From an uncultured Candidatus Saccharibacteria bacterium (GTDB lineage Bacteria > Patescibacteriota > Doudnabacteria > UBA920 > O2-02-FULL-48-8): DNA of 53,134 nucleotides. Where the stretch lies: positions 1 to 53,134 of the forward strand of contig CAZOKE010000002.1 of NCBI GenBank assembly GCA_964580495.1. The letters run 5' to 3'. Positions 9,821 through 43,457 of this stretch are shown here, in pieces (within the stretch, counting starts at the first letter, position 1; every line of letters starts with the position of its first letter). The notes under the pieces are model-generated. The model saw nothing but the letters and a program-made list of their open reading frames with translations. It made no database searches and was not told the origin of the DNA. The position numbers and the translations under genes are program-made.

Positions 9821-11011
9821 TTATTTGATGTAGAAAACTGAAACCATAAACCAAAACAGAACAGATAAATCGTTTTTGAAGTAAGGAACGTCGACTAATC
9901 CATGGACCACGACCGCGACCAGGAAAGCGCTCGCCGCAAACCGATACCAGTTGGGGCTGATCCGATACTCTTTTAGTGTCACAATGATTATTCCCAAGAA
10001 GCTTAAGAGTCCCAAAATTCCCATCTCGACCCAAAAGTTTAGGAAGATGTTATGAGGATAATTGAGAATCTCGCCTTGGAAATTTTGTTGGGCCAATGTC
10101 GTCCGAAATCCGTACAATCCATTGCCAAATAAGGGGTTTTGAATGATTTTATTTACCGCCGCGGACATGAGTTTGGAATGCGCGGTTGAAGACGGATCAT
10201 GCAGGATTAGGCTTATCCTGTCCCTGGTTTGGGGCACCGCAACGAAGATTAAAAGCGCAATCGCGCCGATGCCAAAAACTTGCTTCCAGGGGTAGCGTAT
10301 GAGCAAAAGCAGCAGTGCTGTAAAAGTTACAGCCAGCCACGCTCCTCGAGAGAACGTCAGCATCAATGCAAATAATATTATAATCAAGCCAACCGCTAAA
10401 TTTTTGCCGTTCACAACCTTGTCGCTAGCCAAAAGCATAGCAAAAAAGAATGTTGCCAAGGGTGCTAAGTATAAAGCTAAAGCATTGGGATAATCGAAAA
10501 ACGAAGTGATGCGCTCGACTTCGACTCCGGTGCCCCAGAACCGCATGGGCAAATTCCAGAGAGTGAAATATTGAATGATGCCGAAGATGCTGATTATGAC
10601 TGCTGATAAAAACAACAGATTCAGCGGGGGCTTAAGGTCATTTGGCTTTTTAATTACCAAACGCACGGCATAGAAAAACAGGGTCGGCTCCAGAATAAAA
10701 GCTTTGAATTCTCCCAAGGCTTTGGCTTTTTCCGGAGAAACTAAAACCGAGATTGCGCCCGCCGCAAGAAAGGCCACAACCATCCAATTTATTGTCTTGA
10801 ACTGTTTCAGCTGGCCCAGATGGTTGAGGTTGGTTAAAAAAGTTATGGCCAAAAAAACCAGGACTAGCAATTCCAAGAAAGTTGTGGGGATTCCCTGGAA
10901 CTCATAGCGGATTAGGTAAGTCGGCAACAGGGCCAAAATTAAACCAACTGCAAAAGTTGGTTTTTGGTGGGCAACGAGCGCAAAAATTATCAGTAATATT
11001 CCAAGGACCAT
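9821..11011 (-). CDS. O-antigen ligase-like (Wzy_C-type) polytopic membrane protein
   Basis: 396 aa, about 10 hydrophobic segments, loop FSRGAWLAV. Starts 4 nt after the PBP1A stop. Confidence 0.6.
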   Translation of the reverse strand: MVLGILLIIFALVAHQKPTFAVGLILALLPTYLIRYEFQGIPTTFLELLVLVFLAITFLTNLNHLGQLKQFKTINWMVVAFLAAGAISVLVSPEKAKALGEFKAFILEPTLFFYAVRLVIKKPNDLKPPLNLLFLSAVIISIFGIIQYFTLWNLPMRFWGTGVEVERITSFFDYPNALALYLAPLATFFFAMLLASDKVVNGKNLAVGLIIILFALMLTFSRGAWLAVTFTALLLLLIRYPWKQVFGIGAIALLIFVAVPQTRDRISLILHDPSSTAHSKLMSAAVNKIIQNPLFGNGLYGFRTTLAQQNFQGEILNYPHNIFLNFWVEMGILGLLSFLGIIIVTLKEYRISPNWYRFAASAFLVAVVVHGLVDVPYFKNDLSVLFWFMVSVFYIK

Positions 11012-15389: not shown

Positions 15390-16112
15390 TTAAAGATTAG
15401 CGCTTGTGTGCACGGCGATGACATCATCATTGTTTTCCAAATCAGCAAACAAAGCATCGACTTTGGGTTTTTGGTCTTCTGTAAGGTCAACGCCTTGGCT
15501 GGATTCTTGGATAACATCGGCTTTGGCGATTTTTGCCCCGGCTTTGGCCAGCGCGTCTTTGATTTTCTGCAAATTCAAAGGGAGGGTGTATACTTCCAGG
15601 CCGTCAGCAGATTCCCTCACATCTTCTGCTCCGGCATCAATTGCCGCCAGCTCCAAATCAGACAAATCAGAGCAATTGTCGCGCTCAACTAGAATCTGGC
15701 CTTTGGTTGAGAACTGCCAAGCCACGCTTCCCTGCGCTCCCAGATTCCCCTGGTGCTTGGCGAAAATATGTTTGATGTTATTGACGGTGCGATTCGGATT
15801 ATCCGTTACCGCTTCGACGATAAAAGCAGTGCCATATGGGCCGTAGCCTTCGTAAGTGACTTCTTCAATAGCATCTTTGCCTTCGCCGGCTCCCCTTTTG
15901 ATAGCCCGATCAATGTTGTCGTTGGGCATGGATGCGGCTTTGGCGCGATCCACTGCCATGCGCAATTGGAAATTAAATGCAGGATCTGCTCCGCCGCCTG
16001 TGCGCACCGCCACAGAAATTGTTTTTGCCAATTTCGTAAACAGCTGGCCGCGCTTTGCATCAGTTATGGCCTTGGCCCGTTTAGTTGTCGCCCATTTACT
16101 GTGTCCTGACAT
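15390..16112 (-). CDS. yebC: YebC/PmpR-family transcriptional regulator
   Basis: MSGHSKWATTKR... canonical N-terminus from the ATG at 16112. The track ORF extends to 16145. Confidence 0.9.
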   Translation of the reverse strand: MSGHSKWATTKRAKAITDAKRGQLFTKLAKTISVAVRTGGGADPAFNFQLRMAVDRAKAASMPNDNIDRAIKRGAGEGKDAIEEVTYEGYGPYGTAFIVEAVTDNPNRTVNNIKHIFAKHQGNLGAQGSVAWQFSTKGQILVERDNCSDLSDLELAAIDAGAEDVRESADGLEVYTLPLNLQKIKDALAKAGAKIAKADVIQESSQGVDLTEDQKPKVDALFADLENNDDVIAVHTSANL

Positions 16113-31831: not shown

Positions 31832-31852
31832 GCCCTCGTAGCTCAATGGATA
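31832..31852 (+). pseudogene. Partial copy of the tRNA-Arg 5' end (acceptor and D-arm)
   Basis: cgtagctcaatggata at 31837-52 is identical to 31873-88 inside tRNA-Arg. Confidence 0.6.
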
Positions 31853-31867
31853 CCCGCCCGACCGCCT

Positions 31868-31942
31868 GACTCCGTAGCTCAATGGATAGAGCAGCGCCGT
31901 CCTAAGGCGTTGATGTTGGTTCAACTCCAGCCGGGGTCACCA
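31868..31942 (+). tRNA. tRNA-Arg (anticodon CCU)
   Basis: GACTCCG/CGGGGTC acceptor stem, anticodon loop GTCCTAA, CCA encoded. Flanked by the 9-bp inverted repeat ccgcctgac (31862-70) / gtcaggcgg (31948-56). Confidence 0.85.
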
Positions 31943-31972
31943 ATAAATGTCAGGCGGGCAGGGAGCAGGCGC

Positions 31973-32048
31973 GGGCCCTTAGCTCATTTGGTAGAGCGCT
32001 TCCATGGCATGGAAGAGGTGACCGGTTCGAGCCCGGTAGGGTCCACCA
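31973..32048 (+). tRNA. tRNA-Ala (anticodon GGC)
   Basis: G3-U70 pair in the GGGCCCT/AGGGTCC acceptor stem. Anticodon loop ATGGCAT. CCA encoded. Confidence 0.9.
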
Positions 32049-32065
32049 GAAAAGACTTCAGGATA

Positions 32066-32124
32066 AAACACCCTCTCTGTCCGACTTTGTCGGACATCTC
32101 TCCCGCTTTGCGGGCGAGAATAAT
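32066..32124 (+). ncRNA. Copy 1 of a conserved two-hairpin RNA motif (unknown family)
   Basis: acaccctctctg, then hairpin gtccgac-ttt-gtcggac, then catctctccc, then hairpin closing on tgcgggcgagaataa. Followed by AGGAGG and a T-run (32148-32160). Confidence 0.45.
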
Positions 32125-32205
32125 AGGAGGTGGCAATCGCGGGGTCTTTTTTGTTTTTTTACAATAGGCATGTTAAGCTTAGGTTAAACATTAAATTTCT
32201 TTTTT

Positions 32206-32640
32206 ATGTGGAAAACATTTTTGATTGTGGTTGTAATCCTGGTTGTCGCTTTTGTAGCTTATGATCTATTTTTAAGCTCCAAGGTCACACCCAGCAGTTT
32301 AGAAAAAAACCCTCAAGTAACCTCAACTCTAGATAAGGCCAGTTTGACTCAACGGGACGCAAAGCGGCTGAGTGATGTCAGACAATTTAAAGTCCAGTTG
32401 GATCTTTATAAACAAGCAAAAGGTCAGTACCCACAAACGCTGCAACAGTTAGCTTCGTATTTCTCTACTACCACTCCTCAAGCGCCTCAACCTGCAGACA
32501 GTCCTTGCAATAGCGCAAACAATAATTATGTTTACACCCCGACTAGCTCTTCGTATGCGCTAAAGTTTTGTTTAGGGACGAGTGGGGAAGAAAATTACAG
32601 TTCAGGAGTCCACACATTGACTCCAGGCGGAATTCAGTAA
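32206..32640 (+). CDS. Pilin-like secreted/anchored protein lacking a canonical prepilin cleavage motif
   Basis: 144 aa. N-terminal TM helix followed by RDAKRLSDVRQFKVQLDLYKQAKGQYP, the pattern that follows the N-terminal helix in type IV pilin-like proteins. No G/FTLIE motif. Confidence 0.5.
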   Translation: MWKTFLIVVVILVVAFVAYDLFLSSKVTPSSLEKNPQVTSTLDKASLTQRDAKRLSDVRQFKVQLDLYKQAKGQYPQTLQQLASYFSTTTPQAPQPADSPCNSANNNYVYTPTSSSYALKFCLGTSGEENYSSGVHTLTPGGIQ

Positions 32641-40200: not shown

Positions 40201-41163
40201 ATGCCTATTCCCAACGATGTCAAAATGAATATGAAAAAAGCCCTGCTGTTAATCCAAAAAGTTGACAGGATTTTTATGACCACGCACGAAAATACGGACG
40301 GGGATGATTTGGGTTCTCTGCTGGCACTTAAACGAGCTTTGCAAAAAATGAACAAGCATGTGGATGCGGCTGTGCGCAAAGGGGTGCCCCAAAGCTTGAA
40401 ATTCCTGCATGGTTCAATCGAAGTCGGAGAGAAGTTGGCACAAACAAATTTTGATTTAATAATTACTTTTGGTTGCGGCACCATAGAACGCACCAATCAT
40501 CCGGAGCTTTACAATCTGTCGGTTCCAATCATCAACATCGATCATCACCCAGACAACAAAATGTTCGGGCACATCAACATTGTTGAACCCTCGACTTCCT
40601 CGGTCGCGGAGTTAATGTTCCACTTTTTTAACGTTTGTGATTTGCCGATTGATAAGGAAATCGCTGTTTGCCTTTTGACCGGGATATTTACCGATACCGG
40701 CGGGTTCAAACACGCCAACACTTCCGCGGCAGCACTGGCGTCCGCTTCCGAGCTTATGAAGAAAGGGGCCAGGGTCGACCACATCGCCAAACTGACGATG
40801 GGCAGCCAGAATGCCACTGGGGCAGTCGTCTGGGCCAAAGCTTTGGAGAACGCCAGGTTTGACGCCAAGCATAAAATAATTTATTCGGTCTTAACCGAAG
40901 ATGATTTGAAAAGCATCCAGGCTTCGGATGAGAACCTCTCGGGCATTGCCAGCTTCCTCATTAGCATGTCGCAGGCAAAATTTTCCATGTTCTTGCGCCA
41001 AGACGGCGATATTGTCCGCGGCAGTTTGCGGAGCGAGCCGGATCGGGGAGTTGATGTGAACAAGATCGCCAAAATTTTTGGCGGCGGGGGGCACAAGTTG
41101 GCTTCCGGCTTTAAAGTCAAAGGCAAATTAATACGGACAGAAAAGGGCTGGCAGATAATTTAG
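40201..41163 (+). CDS. nrnA: DHH/DHHA1 phosphoesterase (NrnA-like)
   Basis: HENTDGDDLGS, NIDHHPDN, GGGGHKLASG motifs. The ATG at 40201 lies after the rbfA terminator. Confidence 0.7.
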   Translation: MPIPNDVKMNMKKALLLIQKVDRIFMTTHENTDGDDLGSLLALKRALQKMNKHVDAAVRKGVPQSLKFLHGSIEVGEKLAQTNFDLIITFGCGTIERTNHPELYNLSVPIINIDHHPDNKMFGHINIVEPSTSSVAELMFHFFNVCDLPIDKEIAVCLLTGIFTDTGGFKHANTSAAALASASELMKKGARVDHIAKLTMGSQNATGAVVWAKALENARFDAKHKIIYSVLTEDDLKSIQASDENLSGIASFLISMSQAKFSMFLRQDGDIVRGSLRSEPDRGVDVNKIAKIFGGGGHKLASGFKVKGKLIRTEKGWQII

Positions 41164-41232
41164 ATGGCAGTAATTGTCATCTTTTTTTATTTGGGATTTT
41201 GTGGTAAAATAAATAAGCAAAATTCATTAAAA

Positions 41233-41287
41233 CACACCCTCTCTGCCCCTTCGGGGCATCTCTCCCCGCTGATGCGGGCGAGAATAA
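41233..41287 (+). ncRNA. Copy 2 of the conserved two-hairpin RNA motif, abutting the ftsK start codon
   Basis: acaccctctctg, then hairpin gcccc-ttcg-gggc (C(UUCG)G), then catctctcccc, then tgcgggcgagaataa, then aaATG (41289). Confidence 0.45.
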
Positions 41288-41288
41288 A

Positions 41289-42707
41289 ATGAAGATGACT
41301 AAGCGGAAACAAAAACCTATTGCTGAATCCAGTTATAAACGTCCGCAGCTCAACCTGAAAAAGGAAACTAGAAAAGGCGTAGCTGTGGTCTTTTTTGTCG
41401 TGCTGGCAATCTTGTTTGCCTTAAGCTTGGCCGGATCGGCCGGGCCATTTGGGGAAGTTGCCAATAAGGTCTTGAAATTGGCGTTTGGTTGGGTTGCTTA
41501 TGTTGTGCCTTTAATTTTCCTCATGGTTGCCGTGGCTTTATTCCAAACCAAAAACGAAGATGAAACCAATACTGTTTCCATGCACGCTTACGTGGGCGCT
41601 GTGCTTGTGACTTTAACTTTGACCGGGTTTTTGCATTTATTGGTGCTGAGAACCGATGTCAATCAGGCGTTTGATCTGGTAAAGCAAGGGAAAGGCGGCG
41701 GATACTTAGGAGTGCTGACGAGCTATCCGCTCATGCATTTCATGGGCTTTATCGCCAGCTTAATTGTTTTAATTGCAGGGATAGTAGTTTCGTTTTTTGT
41801 AACCTTCAACATCTCTTTTCTTGATTTATGGCGAAAAGAATCTACAGCTCTTGGTGGCAAAACCAAACCCGCACCATTGAAGATCAATAATGCGGCCTCT
41901 GCCGGATTTACCAAAGAATCTGTGGGCGAAGCTAACAAAGCCGCCAAAGAGAATTTGGTCGTGAATATGCCCGGCGACGACAAAGTCGCTTCGCTTAAAT
42001 TAAACACCAGATTGCCGGCGGCTGATAAAAATTGGAAATTCCCGCCCCTGGATCTGTTGGATGACGCAAAAAACCGCGTCGACTCTGGCAACATTGAACA
42101 AAATGTCGCTATCCTGCAAAAAACTCTGCAGGATTTCGGGATCGAAGTTGAAATGGGAGAAGTCAATGTCGGCCCAACTGTTACTCAATATACTTTGCGC
42201 CCAGCTGTGGGCGTGAAACTTTCTCAAATCGGGGCTTTGCAAAATGATTTAGCTTTGGCCTTGTCAGCTTCTTCGATCCGCATGGAGCTGCCGATTCCCG
42301 GCAAAGGATTAGTGGGGATCGAGATTCCAAACAAGAGCACGGCGACCGTGCACCTGCGGGAGATTTTGAGCAATCCGGTTTTTGCGGACAATCCATCGAA
42401 GCTGGCGTTTAGTTTGGGGCGCGATGTGGCGGGTCATCCCATAGTCGCAGATTTGGCGCGGATGCCGCATTTGCTAATTGCCGGAGCTACTGGCAGCGGC
42501 AAATCTATTTGTATGAACTCGGTATTGTTGAGTTTTTTATACCGCTCAACCCCATCGGAAGTGAAATTTATAGTGGTTGACCCCAAGCGTGTCGAGCTCT
42601 CTCTCTACAACGGGCTGCCGCATCTTTTAACCCCTGTGATTACTGATCACCAACAGGCGGTGAATGCTTTGCGCTGGACTGTGATGGAAATGGACCGCCG
42701 CTATTAA
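41289..42707 (+). CDS. ftsK: FtsK/SpoIIIE DNA translocase, N-terminal part (membrane domain, linker, Walker A), ending at an in-frame TAA
   Basis: 472 aa. AGATGSGKS Walker A. Ends ...MEMDRRY-TAA in the middle of the conserved motor domain. Confidence 0.8.
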   Translation: MKMTKRKQKPIAESSYKRPQLNLKKETRKGVAVVFFVVLAILFALSLAGSAGPFGEVANKVLKLAFGWVAYVVPLIFLMVAVALFQTKNEDETNTVSMHAYVGAVLVTLTLTGFLHLLVLRTDVNQAFDLVKQGKGGGYLGVLTSYPLMHFMGFIASLIVLIAGIVVSFFVTFNISFLDLWRKESTALGGKTKPAPLKINNAASAGFTKESVGEANKAAKENLVVNMPGDDKVASLKLNTRLPAADKNWKFPPLDLLDDAKNRVDSGNIEQNVAILQKTLQDFGIEVEMGEVNVGPTVTQYTLRPAVGVKLSQIGALQNDLALALSASSIRMELPIPGKGLVGIEIPNKSTATVHLREILSNPVFADNPSKLAFSLGRDVAGHPIVADLARMPHLLIAGATGSGKSICMNSVLLSFLYRSTPSEVKFIVVDPKRVELSLYNGLPHLLTPVITDHQQAVNALRWTVMEMDRRY

Positions 42708-43457
42708 ATGCTGCAAGAAGTGCATAAGCGGAATATTCAGGAATTCAACGATGCCAGCTTGCTCAAAATGCCTTATTTAGTTGTTGTGGTTGATGAATTG
42801 GCGGACCTGATGAGTGTGGCCCAAAACGAAGTCGAAGCCGCCGTTGTGAGATTGGCGCAAATGGCGCGCGCCGTGGGCATCCATTTGGTTTTGGCCACGC
42901 AACGGCCTTCGGTGGACGTCATCACCGGTTTGATCAAAGCCAACATCACTTCCCGCATTGCCTTTGCGGTAGCTTCGCAAGTCGACTCGCGCACCATCCT
43001 CGACATGTCCGGGGCCGAGAAACTTCTGGGGCGCGGCGACATGCTTTACATCACGTCTGACCTTCCGAAACCGATGCGCATCCAAGGCTCGTTTGTCACT
43101 GAAAAAGAAATCAAGAAAGTCATGGATTTCATCAAGGACCAAGCCGGCGAAGTTATTTACAACGAACAGATTGTCGAAAAGCCCACCAAAGCCGCGGGCA
43201 CTTCCGGTTATGAAACCGACATGGATGATGGCGGCGATGAATTATTGCCGGAGGCAACGCAAATTGTCAGGCAGGCCGGCAAAGCTTCCGCGTCATTGCT
43301 GCAGCGGCGGCTGCGAGTCGGTTATGCCCGCGCCGCGAGATTGTTGGACATCATGGAAGACCAGGGGATTGTGGGGCCGGCGGACGGCGCCAAGCCTCGC
43401 GAAGTTTATAATGAGGAAGGACAACCTGCAGAATCGACAATTGATGATTTTCAATAA
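42708..43457 (+). CDS. ftsK: FtsK/SpoIIIE DNA translocase, C-terminal part (Walker B, gamma winged helix), same frame as the N-terminal part
   Basis: The ATG immediately follows the TAA. VVVVDELADL Walker B. LATQRPSVDV. C-terminal ...LLQRRLRVGYARAARLLDIMEDQGIVGP. Confidence 0.8.
   Translation: MLQEVHKRNIQEFNDASLLKMPYLVVVVDELADLMSVAQNEVEAAVVRLAQMARAVGIHLVLATQRPSVDVITGLIKANITSRIAFAVASQVDSRTILDMSGAEKLLGRGDMLYITSDLPKPMRIQGSFVTEKEIKKVMDFIKDQAGEVIYNEQIVEKPTKAAGTSGYETDMDDGGDELLPEATQIVRQAGKASASLLQRRLRVGYARAARLLDIMEDQGIVGPADGAKPREVYNEEGQPAESTIDDFQ

Follow-up and report, generated by a model that had tools for sequence, protein, structure and literature searches.

Two structured motifs in a Doudnabacteria genome, probably insertions of a widespread interspersed repeat with a predicted intrastrand triple helix

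The two copies of a conserved motif in the window (the whole 53,134-nucleotide stretch of DNA analysed here) look like regulatory RNAs and are reread here as repeat insertions. With a probability of about 0.7, we consider these sequences to be an interspersed repeat of about 45-60 bp, of the BoxC/PIT/TMECO intrastrand-triplex kind and forming a separate and far wider family, the triplex itself being predicted. From 5' to 3', the pyrimidine tract CCCTCTCT (block 1) is followed by a G-C-closed hairpin of arbitrary sequence (hairpin 1), the tract TCTCTCCC (block 2), a short loop or inner stem, and the purine tract GGGCGAGA (block 3). Blocks 2 and 3 would form a Watson-Crick hairpin (hairpin 2), and block 1 would fit into its major groove by sequence and polarity. 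The triples predicted for this pyrimidine strand are C+.G-C and T.A-T. The complementary strand, 5'-TCTCGCCC-loop-GGGAGAGA-hairpin-AGAGAGGG-3', would form G.G-C and A.A-T triples; TMECO has been shown to adopt this purine-motif (class II) fold in vitro.

Both copies lie on the + strand, at 32066-32124 and 41233-41287, and exact pattern matching confirmed the positions and the three common tracts reported in an earlier note on this DNA. The tracts ACACCCTCTCTG, CATCTCTCCC and TGCGGGCGAGAATAA are identical between the copies, and the composite CATCTCTCCC-N(3-20)-GCGGGCGAGAATAA has exactly two matches in the window and none in 100 shuffles. Each copy folds into two neighbouring hairpins (z-scores of -4.4 and -4.6), the RNA folds reaching -25 to -30 kcal/mol (z about -4.5). 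As the note had seen, hairpin 1 is wholly different in sequence between copy 1 and copy 2 and kept in position. The C(UUCG)G tetraloop that it had proposed for copy 2 is better described as a TTC triloop on a stem of 5-6 bp, according to the fold and to the loop bias of the family. The features of the two copies are as follows.

32062-32123, + strand: copy 1 (AAAACA...GAGAATAA), found by pattern matches and by the covariance model (32068-32122, 52.4 bits)
32071-32078, + strand: block 1 of copy 1, CCCTCTCT, proposed third (Hoogsteen) strand from its mirror relation and its co-variation with blocks 2 and 3
32079-32095, + strand: hairpin 1 of copy 1, gtccgac-ttt-gtcggac, from the fold; sequence variable, pairing kept
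32097-32104, + strand: block 2 of copy 1, TCTCTCCC, Watson-Crick pyrimidine strand of hairpin 2
32112-32119, + strand: block 3 of copy 1, GGGCGAGA, purine strand of hairpin 2, with a C opposite a T of block 2 as the conserved mismatch layer
41229-41287, + strand: copy 2 (AAAACACA...GAGAATAA), found by pattern matches and by the covariance model (41234-41286, 55.1 bits)
41237-41244, + strand: block 1 of copy 2, CCCTCTCT, from the sequence
41245-41257, + strand: hairpin 1 of copy 2, gcccc-ttc-ggggc, from the fold; C-G-closed TTC triloop, the complement of which is c(GAA)g
41259-41266, + strand: block 2 of copy 2, TCTCTCCC, followed by one extra C; best register 41261-41267
41276-41283, + strand: block 3 of copy 2, GGGCGAGA, from the sequence and the fold

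With the extra C in block 2 of copy 2, the best fold has C41279 of block 3 bulged and not mismatched. On the complementary strand, block 1 reads AGAGAGGG, the proposed reverse-Hoogsteen purine strand. Mismatch searches for further copies in the window gave only chance-level partial matches, at 15578, 24327 and 26750; neither the covariance model nor a generic triplex scan, which alone is not significant (about 0.9 matches in shuffles), found anything in the window beyond the two copies. The earlier view that the motif is no known riboswitch family agrees with Rfam 15, in which no match was obtained at the motif, whether for the window at the gathering threshold, for both copies at E ≤ 10 or for 18 homologous loci. 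No T-run follows block 3, in either window copy or in the family, and the motif itself was rejected as an intrinsic terminator because no U-run comes directly after its G+C-rich hairpin.

Homologues with compensatory pairing were sought and found in number. The pattern CCCTCTCT-N8-32-TCTCTCCC-N4-30-GGGCGAGA is present at at least 118 loci in one-genome-per-species contigs, and a variant pattern at at least 120 metagenome loci. Among the matches listed, the phyla are Bacteroidota, Proteobacteria, Patescibacteria, Melainabacteria, Chloroflexota, Verrucomicrobiota and others; isolates in this list include Pedobacter, Nubsella, Chitinophaga, Aureimonas and Actinobacillus, and the MAGs listed belong to Patescibacteria, Melainabacteria, Chloroflexota, Verrucomicrobiota, Rhodothermales, Myxococcota and Thiotrichales. 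The family covers at least nine phyla, including CPR bacteria. Its range, which takes in CPR bacteria, Bacteroidota and Proteobacteria, is far wider than that of BoxC/PIT/TMECO, and it is abundant in gut metagenomes. Many copies can occur in a single MAG, with at least 10 loci in one Rhodothermales MAG and at least 10 in the gut genome MGYG-HGUT-00629, and the unit repeated inside one genome measures only about 50-160 nt. Inverted pairs or tandem arrays were seen at 11 loci or more (L011, L020, L026, L033, L040, L052, L061, L068, L085, L091, L103 and L117 among them), and the window has two single copies only, with no pair or array. A small ORF in the Nubsella arrays was discarded as a candidate, as its reading frame is not kept between units. 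The canonical pattern had no match in the viral contigs of IMG/VR, and we therefore see no phage link. Literature searches by sequence returned nothing relevant, and searches by topic returned only the BoxC/TMECO paper and general triplex reviews.

The data support selection on the structure of these repeats. The two stems are 95% paired in 130 distinct homologues, with 134 double-sided changes vs. 35 ± 5 in shuffles (none of 500 shuffles reached 134) and 8-27 in slid controls, and all four modelled pairs of hairpin 1 co-vary across the family. From the earlier claim of a selected RNA structure without recent duplication, the selected structure and the absence of a recent duplication are therefore retained; for an assignment to the RNA level, the wobble pairs give no backing.

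The relations between the three tracts go beyond these two stems. Blocks 1 and 2 are mirror images of each other, not direct repeats. More than 250 homologues agree with the two window copies in that block 3 is the plain complement of block 1 (and not its reverse complement) but the reverse complement of block 2. When the purine of layer 8 was forced to G, blocks 1 and 2 both carried C in 130 of 132 matches (105 of 107 unique ones). At layer 1, three loci from Pedobacter have a (T,T,A) variant, and at layer 6 one locus (L040) has (C,C,G), while the canonical layer-8 (T,T,A) and its (C,C,G) variant coexist in bin.62, in Actinobacillus minor and in a Rhizobiaceae MAG. The mismatch layer is (T,T,C) 108 times and (T,T,A) 16 times. 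The length of the C-run of block 1 follows that of the paired C/G run of hairpin 2 (Spearman 0.69; partial correlation controlling for GC, 0.69), and C-run and G-run are equal in length in 80% of the copies vs. 54% after permutation. The hairpin separating the third-strand tract from the duplex takes up 13-17 nt in the two window copies and 9-30 nt across the family as a whole. Such coordinated changes in three tracts make it testable whether a triple helix is selected, on which strand, and as DNA or RNA.

Part of this evidence has a second reading. The layer-6 co-variation was downgraded as proof of a triplex because position 6 pairs with position 6 in the TCTC/GAGA register, so that an antiparallel helix fits equally well; the CT tracts being nearly mirror-symmetric, this event is also compatible with antiparallel pairing between blocks 1 and 3. 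Part of the layer-8 evidence likewise fits antiparallel pairing, in the GGGAGAGG subfamily and by way of a shifted register, and the sequence counts overstate the number of independent events since subfamily copies share ancestry. Moreover, at the central layer the Watson-Crick pair has changed to C-G in four copies with block 1 still T, i.e. (T,C,G), which counts against the triplex. The earlier note had also proposed that blocks 1 and 2 compete for a single GAGA partner. This competition does not explain the data, because block 1 mirrors block 2 and its 5' C-run co-varies with the G-run of block 3, whereas an antiparallel helix would set the C-run against unrelated downstream sequence.

The same observations bear on an alternative that we hold to be unlikely, namely a two-hairpin repeat without triple helix, in which some protein, for instance a REP-associated (RAYT-like) HUH transposase, a recombinase or a nucleoid protein, would recognise the conserved CT and GA tracts. 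The binding mode of this protein, or the alternating-CT composition, would then account for the mirror symmetry. The tolerance of (T,C,G) at the central layer in four copies fits such a site, as do the extreme conservation of 24 nt across phyla (typical of a protein or enzyme recognition site), the inverted doublets resembling REPINs, and the mismatched or bulged base conserved in hairpin 2 (typical of folded-ssDNA sites). However, directional reading of a single strand does not naturally require tract 1 to mirror tract 2; nor does it need tract 1 to change with the pair, as happens at layers 1 and 8, or the C-run of tract 1 to track the length of the G-run. In addition, no co-occurring gene was identified, and tblastn for a Y1/HUH transposase in 246 loci (1.9 Mb, about 8 kb per locus) found nothing, this negative, with an IS200 TnpA query, being weak and of low sensitivity. 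The repeat also offers a defined bait for a protein that recognises or spreads such elements.

Returning to the triplex reading, we tentatively propose, with more doubt than confidence, that the homologues may form an undescribed cross-phyla 'triplex-plus-hairpin' family, in which the three tracts would be kept mirror-related by selection. If true, this would be the first comparative evidence, by three-way and length co-variation, of a functional intrastrand triple helix (DNA or RNA) in bacteria. The 24 near-identical nucleotides over at least nine phyla would then imply a common partner reading the folded triplex, e.g. an enzyme that mobilises the repeat, or a universal factor of replication, repair or RNA decay.

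Several features suggest which strand is folded. The triloops of hairpin 1 are TNC in 39 cases vs. GNA in one, the tetraloops TNNC in 37 cases vs. GNNA in none, and the closing pair is C-G in 97 of 115. Read on the complementary strand, these TNC and TNNC loops become c(GNA)g and c(GNNA)g, which are classic very stable DNA mini-hairpin loops. G.T pairs are no more frequent than A.C ones, either in hairpin 1 (4 vs. 6) or in the inner pair of hairpin 2 (9 vs. 14). The flanking genes of the matches listed occur in all four orientations (+- 26, ++ 22, -- 21, -+ 13), as they do with stricter ORFs (++ 40, -- 24, +- 33, -+ 15), these gene calls being crude ORF calls that are largely spurious in GC-rich loci. 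With local GC skew as a proxy, there is no preference for a replication strand (130 vs. 113, p = 0.30). From the near-random orientation relative to genes and GC skew, the absence of a G.U-over-A.C asymmetry and the TNC/TNNC loops, we infer that selection acts on folded single-stranded DNA, the complementary strand being the most likely one. However, the pyrimidine version of both window copies lies on the strand of positive GC skew (n = 2), so that the lagging-strand template in the window is probably not the strand with the purine motif.

The orientation data also show a slight bias towards sense copies: in 28 of 194 copies, the 5' end of the motif lies within 14 nt of the end of a gene of 150 codons or more, vs. 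10 of 194 for the mirror case. Together with the excess of ++ over -- (40 vs. 24), this bias leaves room for an RNA-level role. The repeat could thus be an RNA module spread by a mobile DNA element and acting generically, with no gene-specific switch, e.g. as an exonuclease barrier at mRNA or tRNA ends in the manner of REP elements, or as a pH-sensitive structure. The pyrimidine strand would then be transcribed and adopt a two-hairpin fold, which may include a triple helix of C+.G-C and U.A-U triples. We judge this quite unlikely. It accords with the strong RNA folds, with the sense orientation, within transcription units, of both window copies and of an element in a relative (L122), and with the fact that RNA allows pyrimidine-motif triplexes and not purine-motif ones (PMC4666352). 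Nevertheless, about 40% of the copies between co-directional genes are in antisense and numerous others separate convergent genes, the TNC/TNNC loops have no known rationale for stability in RNA whereas their complements are the DNA loops named above, and downstream of the motif there is neither a consistent U-run nor a processing signal. The absence of G.U excess also speaks against it, and the pyrimidine-motif triplex would require protonated C at neutral pH in five of eight layers, three of them adjacent.

As judged by comparison with relatives, both copies are lineage-specific insertions, because eight Doudnabacteria relatives have no motif at ftsK and two have a plain terminator after tRNA-Ala. 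By this comparison, this Doudnabacteria genome acquired the element twice, once in the loop of the tRNA-Ala terminator and once in the ftsK leader, after the -10-like box and ahead of the start codon. The two copies lie on the sense strand and would therefore be carried passively in transcripts. Any effect on the tRNA-Ala and ftsK neighbours would be a side effect and not the cause of motif conservation. The annotation of the tRNA-Ala terminator and of the ftsK start codon should follow this insertion reading, and no ftsK riboswitch should be claimed. The site of copy 1 comprises two features.

31973-32048, + strand: tRNA-Ala(GGC), directly upstream of the terminator hosting copy 1
32047-32159, + strand: intrinsic terminator of the tRNA-Arg/tRNA-Ala unit, with arms at 32047-32059 and 32141-32153 and a T-run at 32147-32159, from folds and from sequence comparison with L119 and L122

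In these two relatives, a plain terminator with a loop of 12-14 nt follows tRNA-Ala. The arms are the same in the window, but the motif sits between them and expands the loop to about 81 nt. The earlier note had correctly placed copy 1 after tRNA-Ala(GGC) and before AGGAGG (32125-32130, 3' of the copy) and a T-run. This T-run is, however, part of the tRNA-Ala terminator by the same comparison, because the relatives have the terminator without the motif. Copy 1 would leave the terminator stem and the U-run intact. Downstream, the ORF at 32206-32640 has a weak T2SS-G/pseudopilin match (E = 2.9e-4), in keeping with the pilin-like gene named earlier. The site of copy 2 is made up as follows.

41162-41189, + strand: intrinsic terminator of the upstream DHH/DHHA1 (nrnA-like) gene
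41202-41210, + strand: TGGTAAAAT, extended -10-like box of ftsK by direct sequence comparison, a putative promoter element
41222-41294, + strand: inserted segment (approximate), missing from all eight orthologous ftsK leaders and holding copy 2 and an in-frame ATGAAG
41295-41297, + strand: ftsK start codon, where ATG ACT AAG CGG aligns with ATG NCN AAA CGG of the relatives

The orthologous nrnA-ftsK spacers (n = 8: L119-L122 and L243-L246), next to FtsK proteins 76-82% identical to that of the window, do not contain the motif. Their layout is TG-N-TAAAAT, 12-25 nt (64 nt in L122) and ATG, and the -10-like box is kept as TG-N-TAAAAT in seven of the eight relatives and is TAGAAT in the other; a -35/-10 scan did not call the TGGTAAAAT box at 41202-41210. 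At the corresponding place in its ftsK leader, L122 carries another kind of triplex repeat, a simple one, in sense orientation. The covariance model gave only an 8.4-bit trace there, at the element of L122 itself, and no copy in 113 kb of the seven other relatives. The longest ftsK ORF of the window begins at 41289, 1 nt after the motif, as the earlier note had it, and the ATGAAG at this point is within the inserted segment. Orthology supports ATG 41295, not 41289, as the true ftsK start, and the database gene call (470 aa) agrees with it. GCGGGCGAGA, which the earlier note had placed in the ribosome-binding position, is not a Shine-Dalgarno sequence; the ftsK leaders of the relatives are short and A-rich and have none, and the window leader has none either. 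The insertion would have lengthened the ftsK leader by about 70 nt and made it structured, with the A-rich unpaired stretch before the ATG presumably retained.

These two sites largely refute, from the sequences compared, a cis-regulatory RNA in which CUCUC tracts pair alternately with GAGA to control ftsK translation (copy 2) and termination before the pilin-like gene (copy 1). We regard it as highly improbable even though copy 2 adjoins the ftsK start, copy 1 precedes a T-run, the stems co-vary, and a helix of 4-6 bp can form between blocks 1 and 3, as it does in some of the minimum-free-energy folds. The motif is missing from 8 of 8 orthologous ftsK leaders and from 2 of 2 tRNA-Ala terminators, and the T-run and outer stem are older than the insertion. 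Across the family, the flanking genes are unrelated and in every orientation, and the repeat comes in many copies per genome and in tandem arrays; a leader or riboswitch of ftsK or of the pilin-like gene is not compatible with this distribution. In addition, the alternative helix leaves the conservation of the 5' CCC of block 1 and the length co-variation unexplained, and a Shine-Dalgarno sequence is missing in the window and in the orthologous leaders.

The interspersed-repeat reading was compared with known systems. To our knowledge, BoxC/PIT/TMECO elements have been a curiosity since the 1990s, with no in vivo evidence for the importance of the triplex. They occur in E. coli and other Proteobacteria and resemble the repeat described here in having three Y/R tracts in a double fold-back order (Y-R-R / Y-Y-R, here deduced from sequence), nearly identical tracts with variable loops, and one mismatched triplet as the commonest state. 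Both are intergenic and multi-copy, with no clear strand bias and frequent inverted pairs, and neither has an associated gene function or transposase known. For TMECO, an intergenic location, the absence of strand bias, inverted pairs and mostly one mismatched triplet were reported by Holder et al. 2015, with a class II triplex formed in vitro by CD and NMR and in vivo DMS footprinting that showed no triplex (PMC4666352). The TMECO consensus is 5'-CCCTCNCCC N3-6 GGGNGAGGG N3 GGGNGAGGG-3', with 9-nt stems (PMC4666352). In contrast, the tracts are here CCCTCTCT / TCTCTCCC / GGGCGAGA as against CCCTCNCCC / GGGNGAGGG, and those of the equivalent strand in the window, TCTCGCCC / GGGAGAGA / AGAGAGGG, do not match the TMECO consensus. 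The stems have eight layers, extendable by C/G runs, instead of nine, and the loop between third strand and duplex is a co-varying hairpin of 4-8 bp instead of 3 nt, the short unstructured TMECO loops (3-6 nt and 3 nt) not being present. This hairpin-filled loop would therefore have been missed by the ITxF (loops of 1-6 nt) and Hoyne (Hoyne et al. 2000; loops of 0-10 nt) searches. The distribution also differs, at least nine phyla including CPR bacteria vs. 262 proteobacterial genomes for TMECO. As to the known repeat family that the earlier note had set against its own reading, the motif belongs to one in kind, as a BoxC/PIT-like intrastrand-triplex repeat, and not in identity, the family being a different one.

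Natural RNA triplexes are more distant. ENE/MALAT1 triplexes and the preQ1-II/SAM-II pseudoknots share a major-groove pyrimidine strand with U.A-U and C+.G-C triples in one molecule, as predicted here. Unlike this repeat, they consist of U-rich loops clamping an A-rich tract or of ligand-dependent pseudoknots; they are transcript- and strand-specific and not interspersed orientation-free repeats, and none was found with this sequence. In a review of such RNA structures from 2026, the bacterial examples are limited to riboswitches and one group II intron (PMC13541005).

Other mobile or repeated elements show partial likeness. REP/BIME/REPIN elements (RAYT/TnpA-REP) are also short structured intergenic multi-copy palindromes, enriched between convergent genes, with frequent inverted doublets and with gain and loss among close relatives. 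However, REP sequences are species- or genus-specific whereas the 24 nt are the same here across phyla, REPs are single imperfect palindromes without the third mirror tract present here, and they are mobilised by RAYT. As with Correia/NEMIS, RUP, BOX and ERIC, insertions in leaders and terminators enter mRNAs, vary in presence between relatives and may have incidental effects on expression; those elements have terminal inverted repeats and target-site duplications and measure 100-200 bp, whereas the window copies, of about 60 bp, have neither terminal inverted repeats nor a clear target duplication. No transposase, terminal inverted repeat or target-site duplication was found for the repeat, so that its mobility is deduced solely from presence and absence. 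Insertion into hairpin loops or terminal inverted repeats was rejected as a rule for the family, the flank complementarity of 263 copies not exceeding that of permuted flanks (p = 0.15). Copy 1 nonetheless sits in a terminator loop.

The repeat studied here occurs twice in the window. Its three conserved blocks, ACACCCTCTCTG, CATCTCTCCC and TGCGGGCGAGAATAA, are identical in the two copies, and the composite pattern of the last two blocks gave 2 matches in the window and none in 100 shuffles. The features are as follows:

32066-32124, + strand: repeat copy 1 (sequence inspection)
41233-41287, + strand: repeat copy 2 (sequence inspection)
Hairpin 1 of copy 1, between blocks 1 and 2: gtccgac-ttt-gtcggac
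Hairpin 1 of copy 2, between blocks 1 and 2: gcccc-ttc-ggggc

Pattern searches and shuffles thus bear out the earlier note, which had described two copies with three shared blocks and a first hairpin kept in position but wholly different in sequence. Its placement of the copies also stands: tRNA-Ala(GGC) precedes copy 1, and the longest ftsK ORF begins 1 nt past copy 2. The second hairpin is formed by blocks 2 and 3, in which one block-3 C is mismatched or bulged, and the folding of both copies is well above shuffled controls (z about -4.5). The motif had been assigned to no recognised family; Rfam 15 gave nothing for either copy, at gathering threshold or at E <= 10, nor any match at 18 homologous repeat loci.

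The window motif is a member of a large cross-phylum repeat family. The exact pattern CCCTCTCT-N8-32-TCTCTCCC-N4-30-GGGCGAGA, run against one-genome-per-species contigs, returned at least 118 loci. The isolates among the matches listed are Pedobacter spp., Nubsella, Chitinophaga, Aureimonas glaciei and Actinobacillus minor; the MAGs listed belong to Patescibacteria (Doudna- and Moranbacteria), Melainabacteria, Chloroflexota, Verrucomicrobiota, Rhodothermales, Myxococcota, Thiotrichales/Francisella, Zoogloeaceae, Rhizobiaceae and Prevotellaceae. Among these matches, several loci come from one genome in many cases, and several loci carry two to four copies. What is repeated within any one genome spans only about 50-160 nt. 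A Thiotrichales MAG has the repeat embedded in a composite, about 500 nt long, whose 159-nt ends are inverted, and Nubsella and Pedobacter have tandem arrays (about 268 nt) in which forward and inverted copies alternate. The canonical pattern had no match in 2.9 million viral contigs. In the arrays at four loci (L052 2900-3900 on the reverse strand, L048, L085 and L068), the period is 261-268 nt, the forward copy (block 3 GGGCGAGA) alternates with the inverted one (block 3 GGGAGAGA), and each unit holds a short ORF that is not conserved. Very abundant among the metagenome loci (L123-L242) is the subfamily CCCTCTCCG-hairpin-CACCTCTCCC-loop-GGG[A/C]GAGG, most of it from the human gut and from other host-associated metagenomes; conservation extends into its 3' flanks (e.g. 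ctttggca or caagggg), a hint that the unit is longer there.

The structure of the repeat is under selection. A covariance model trained on 32 diverse copies recovered 136 copies from 93 sources, and 95% of the cells are paired among the 130 distinct sequences. We counted 134 double-sided changes; column shuffles gave 34.9 +/- 4.9 (none of 500 reached 134) and slid controls 8-27, so that the compensatory stem change noticed between the two window copies holds across the family. The co-varying pairs are all four modelled in hairpin 1 and the innermost of hairpin 2.

Then, we examined the relation between the three tracts. Block 3 (5'-GGGCGAGA) is the antiparallel pairing partner of block 2 (5'-TCTCTCCC), and block 1 (5'-CCCTCTCT) is the complement of block 3 in the same reading direction, being neither a direct nor an inverted repeat. 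Judged on its sequence, the polarity of block 1 would fit a third strand parallel to the purine strand, with C+.G-C and T.A-T triples. On the complementary strand the order is TCTCGCCC-loop-GGGAGAGA-hairpin-AGAGAGGG, and the triples of this class II purine-motif arrangement would be G.G-C and A.A-T. Numbering the stacked positions as layers 1-8 (block 1, block 2, block 3), all three tracts are altered together in the clear variants at layers 1, 6 and 8 (TCCTCTCT/TCTCTCCT/AGGAGAGA; CCCTCCCT/TCCCTCCC/GGGCGGGA; CCCTCTCC/CCTCTCCC/GGGCGAGG), with no exception in existing loci. A metagenome scan with the layer-8 purine fixed as G and both layer-8 pyrimidines left free gave at least 132 matches; as counts of sequences and not of independent events, 130 of the 132 listed (105 of 107 unique) have C in both pyrimidine tracts, and layer 6 among the matches listed is (T,T,A) in 101, (C,C,G) in 5 and mixed in 1. 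Both layer-8 states occur within one genome in bin.62, Actinobacillus minor and a Rhizobiaceae MAG. At the central layer, 108 of the 130 copies share a conserved (T,T,C) mismatch and 16 have (T,T,A); the pair is C-G, with block 1 still T, in 4.

The lengths of the tracts also vary together. The more Cs block 1 has at its 5' end, the longer is the paired C/G run of hairpin 2 (Spearman 0.69-0.70), and the two lengths are equal in 80% of copies vs. 54% after permutation (maximum 62%). Locus GC content does not account for this co-variation, which is present in every GC stratum (partial correlation 0.69). An ordinary antiparallel helix between blocks 1 and 3, competing with hairpin 2 as the earlier note had proposed, is compatible with part of these data: the CT tracts are nearly mirror-symmetric, and therefore the layer-6 event also fits it, as do the layer-8 events in the GGGAGAGG subfamily. 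The mirror register is told apart from that helix by three features: the polarity of the CCC end, the events at layer 1 and the co-variation in length.

Regarding the strand and the nucleic acid concerned, G.T and A.C mismatches are equally rare in the family, which speaks against a strand-specific RNA. In hairpin 1, the loops are strongly asymmetric (triloops: TNC 39 vs. GNA 1; tetraloops: TNNC 37 vs. GNNA 0), with a C-G closing pair in 97 of 115. On the complementary strand these loops are c(GNA)g and c(GNNA)g, reportedly exceptionally stable mini-hairpin loops in DNA (work of Hirao/Yoshizawa and of Nakano and Bevilacqua). The pyrimidine-motif triplex of the present repeat would require five protonated cytosines, three of them adjacent, and purine-motif triplexes are formed at neutral pH with Mg2+ by DNA, not by RNA (PMC4666352). 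Because of this mismatch parity, loop asymmetry and triplex chemistry, the complementary strand, folded as single-stranded DNA, is in our view the more likely selected form. A module acting at the RNA level in transcripts would better suit the mild excess of copies whose start lies no more than 14 nt from a sense-strand stop codon (28 of 194 vs. 10 of 194), a sense bias that also speaks against the complementary strand. The window GC skew is likewise unfavourable: by it, the probable lagging-strand template carries the pyrimidine version instead of the purine one (n = 2). In the window (1-53134), 7 of 8 6-kb bins have a positive GC skew on the + strand, which also carries most genes from 30 kb onward and is probably the leading-strand sequence. 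Across the family, local GC skew revealed no orientation preference (130 to 113, p = 0.30). Bacterial RNA triple helices comprise only riboswitches and a group II intron in a 2026 review (PMC13541005).

The genomic context argues for a repeat over a leader RNA. Most copies are intergenic by crude ORF calling, inverted pairs at close spacing are common among the covariance-model matches, and all four arrangements of flanking genes relative to the motif occur (+- 26, ++ 22, -- 21, -+ 13 with crude ORFs; ++ 40, -- 24, +- 33, -+ 15 with stricter ones). Together with relatives devoid of the motif, these orientations contradict the suggestion of a leader element of ftsK and the pilin-like gene.

Comparison with relatives shows that both window copies are insertions. 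The window is assigned to Candidatus Doudnabacteria on its FtsK homologues, and we compared it with eight syntenic loci (FtsK 76-82% identical). Their nrnA-ftsK spacer measures 28-91 nt in seven and 172 nt in L119, runs in the order TG-N-TAAAAT, 12-25 nt A-rich, ATG-NCN-AAA-CGG, and contains the motif in none of the eight; the covariance model found no copy in 113 kb of seven relatives (L122 apart). The window keeps the relatives' -10 box (41202-41210) and ATG ACT AAG CGG (41295), separated by about 73 extra nt that include copy 2. Concerning copy 1, the plain terminator after tRNA-Ala(GGC) in L119 and L122 is AAAAGACTTC, a 12-14 nt loop and GGGGTCTTTTTT; the window has the same arms (32047-59, 32141-53) and U-run, with a loop of about 81 nt containing copy 1, hence the long-range stem predicted around it. 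As these relatives have the arms and U-run without the motif, the AGGAGG and T-run noted after copy 1 do not form an expression platform. Such presence or absence between close relatives is what marks a repeat as mobile or unstable.

Among described elements, the BoxC / PIT / TMECO repeats come closest; their three tracts CCCTCNCCC-N3-6-GGGNGAGGG-N3-GGGNGAGGG are intergenic, lack strand bias, occur in inverted pairs, carry one mismatched triplet in most copies and form a class II DNA triplex in vitro, with no in vivo footprint or known function (Holder et al. 2015, PMC4666352). The present family resembles them in kind of architecture and genomic behaviour; however, their sequence consensus and short-loop definition both failed here, and it has an additional co-varying hairpin and a much broader taxonomic range. 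In published triplex searches, the loops considered did not exceed 6 or 10 nt, which put the present family out of their reach. Other identities were rejected: REP (no species specificity here, and an extra tract), MITE (terminal inverted repeats and target duplication not found), intrinsic terminator (no U-run after the motif) and any Rfam family (no match).

Copies 1 and 2 are sense-oriented within transcribed DNA, where the repeat would be carried passively. The tRNA-Ala terminator, its arms and U-run kept, should still terminate; the ftsK mRNA would gain a structured segment of about 70 nt and keep an unpaired A-rich stretch before ATG 41295, as in the relatives' leaders, which lack a Shine-Dalgarno sequence. 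The repeat is probably conserved for its own needs, triplex plus hairpin, as single-stranded DNA in replication, repair or mobilisation, and not for neighbouring genes. The observation in the earlier note, compensatory change included, is thus confirmed, and its interpretation is supported in part, but not as regards an ftsK/pilin regulator, the insertions being absent in relatives; cross-phylum conservation and three-way co-variation are what make the family noteworthy.

Other repeats were observed around these sites. At the point of the ftsK leader occupied by copy 2, L122 (9925-9985) has a different, simple BoxC-like triplex repeat, CCTCTCCCC-cga-CCCCTCTCC-tggaa-GGAGAGGGG, with nine perfect layers and no hairpin, which suggests that such elements favour this spot or that they replace one another. 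The L119 spacer (9880-9960) holds a small two-hairpin repeat unrelated to the triplex motif (ccctca-ttt-gaggg, then atctc-tcacttcgttc-gagat). The window ftsK has an in-frame TAA at 42705-42707 (cgc cgc tat TAA atg ctg) between ORFs 41289-42707 and 42708-43457, which share one frame where relatives encode one protein of about 720 aa; a nonsense mutation, a pseudogene or a sequencing error would explain it. In the window region 31833-31963, tRNA-Arg(CCT) is preceded directly by a partial duplicate of its 5' half, and GC-rich inverted repeats (cccgcccgaccgcctgac and gtcaggcgggcaggg) flank the tRNA; this looks like the footprint of a tRNA-targeting mobile element. In the close relative L119 (680-1065), a GIY-YIG endonuclease ORF with cccgcccg hairpins lies between duplicates of the 5' half of tRNA-Ala(GGC), which looks like an intact form of the element whose remnant may adjoin the window tRNA-Arg.
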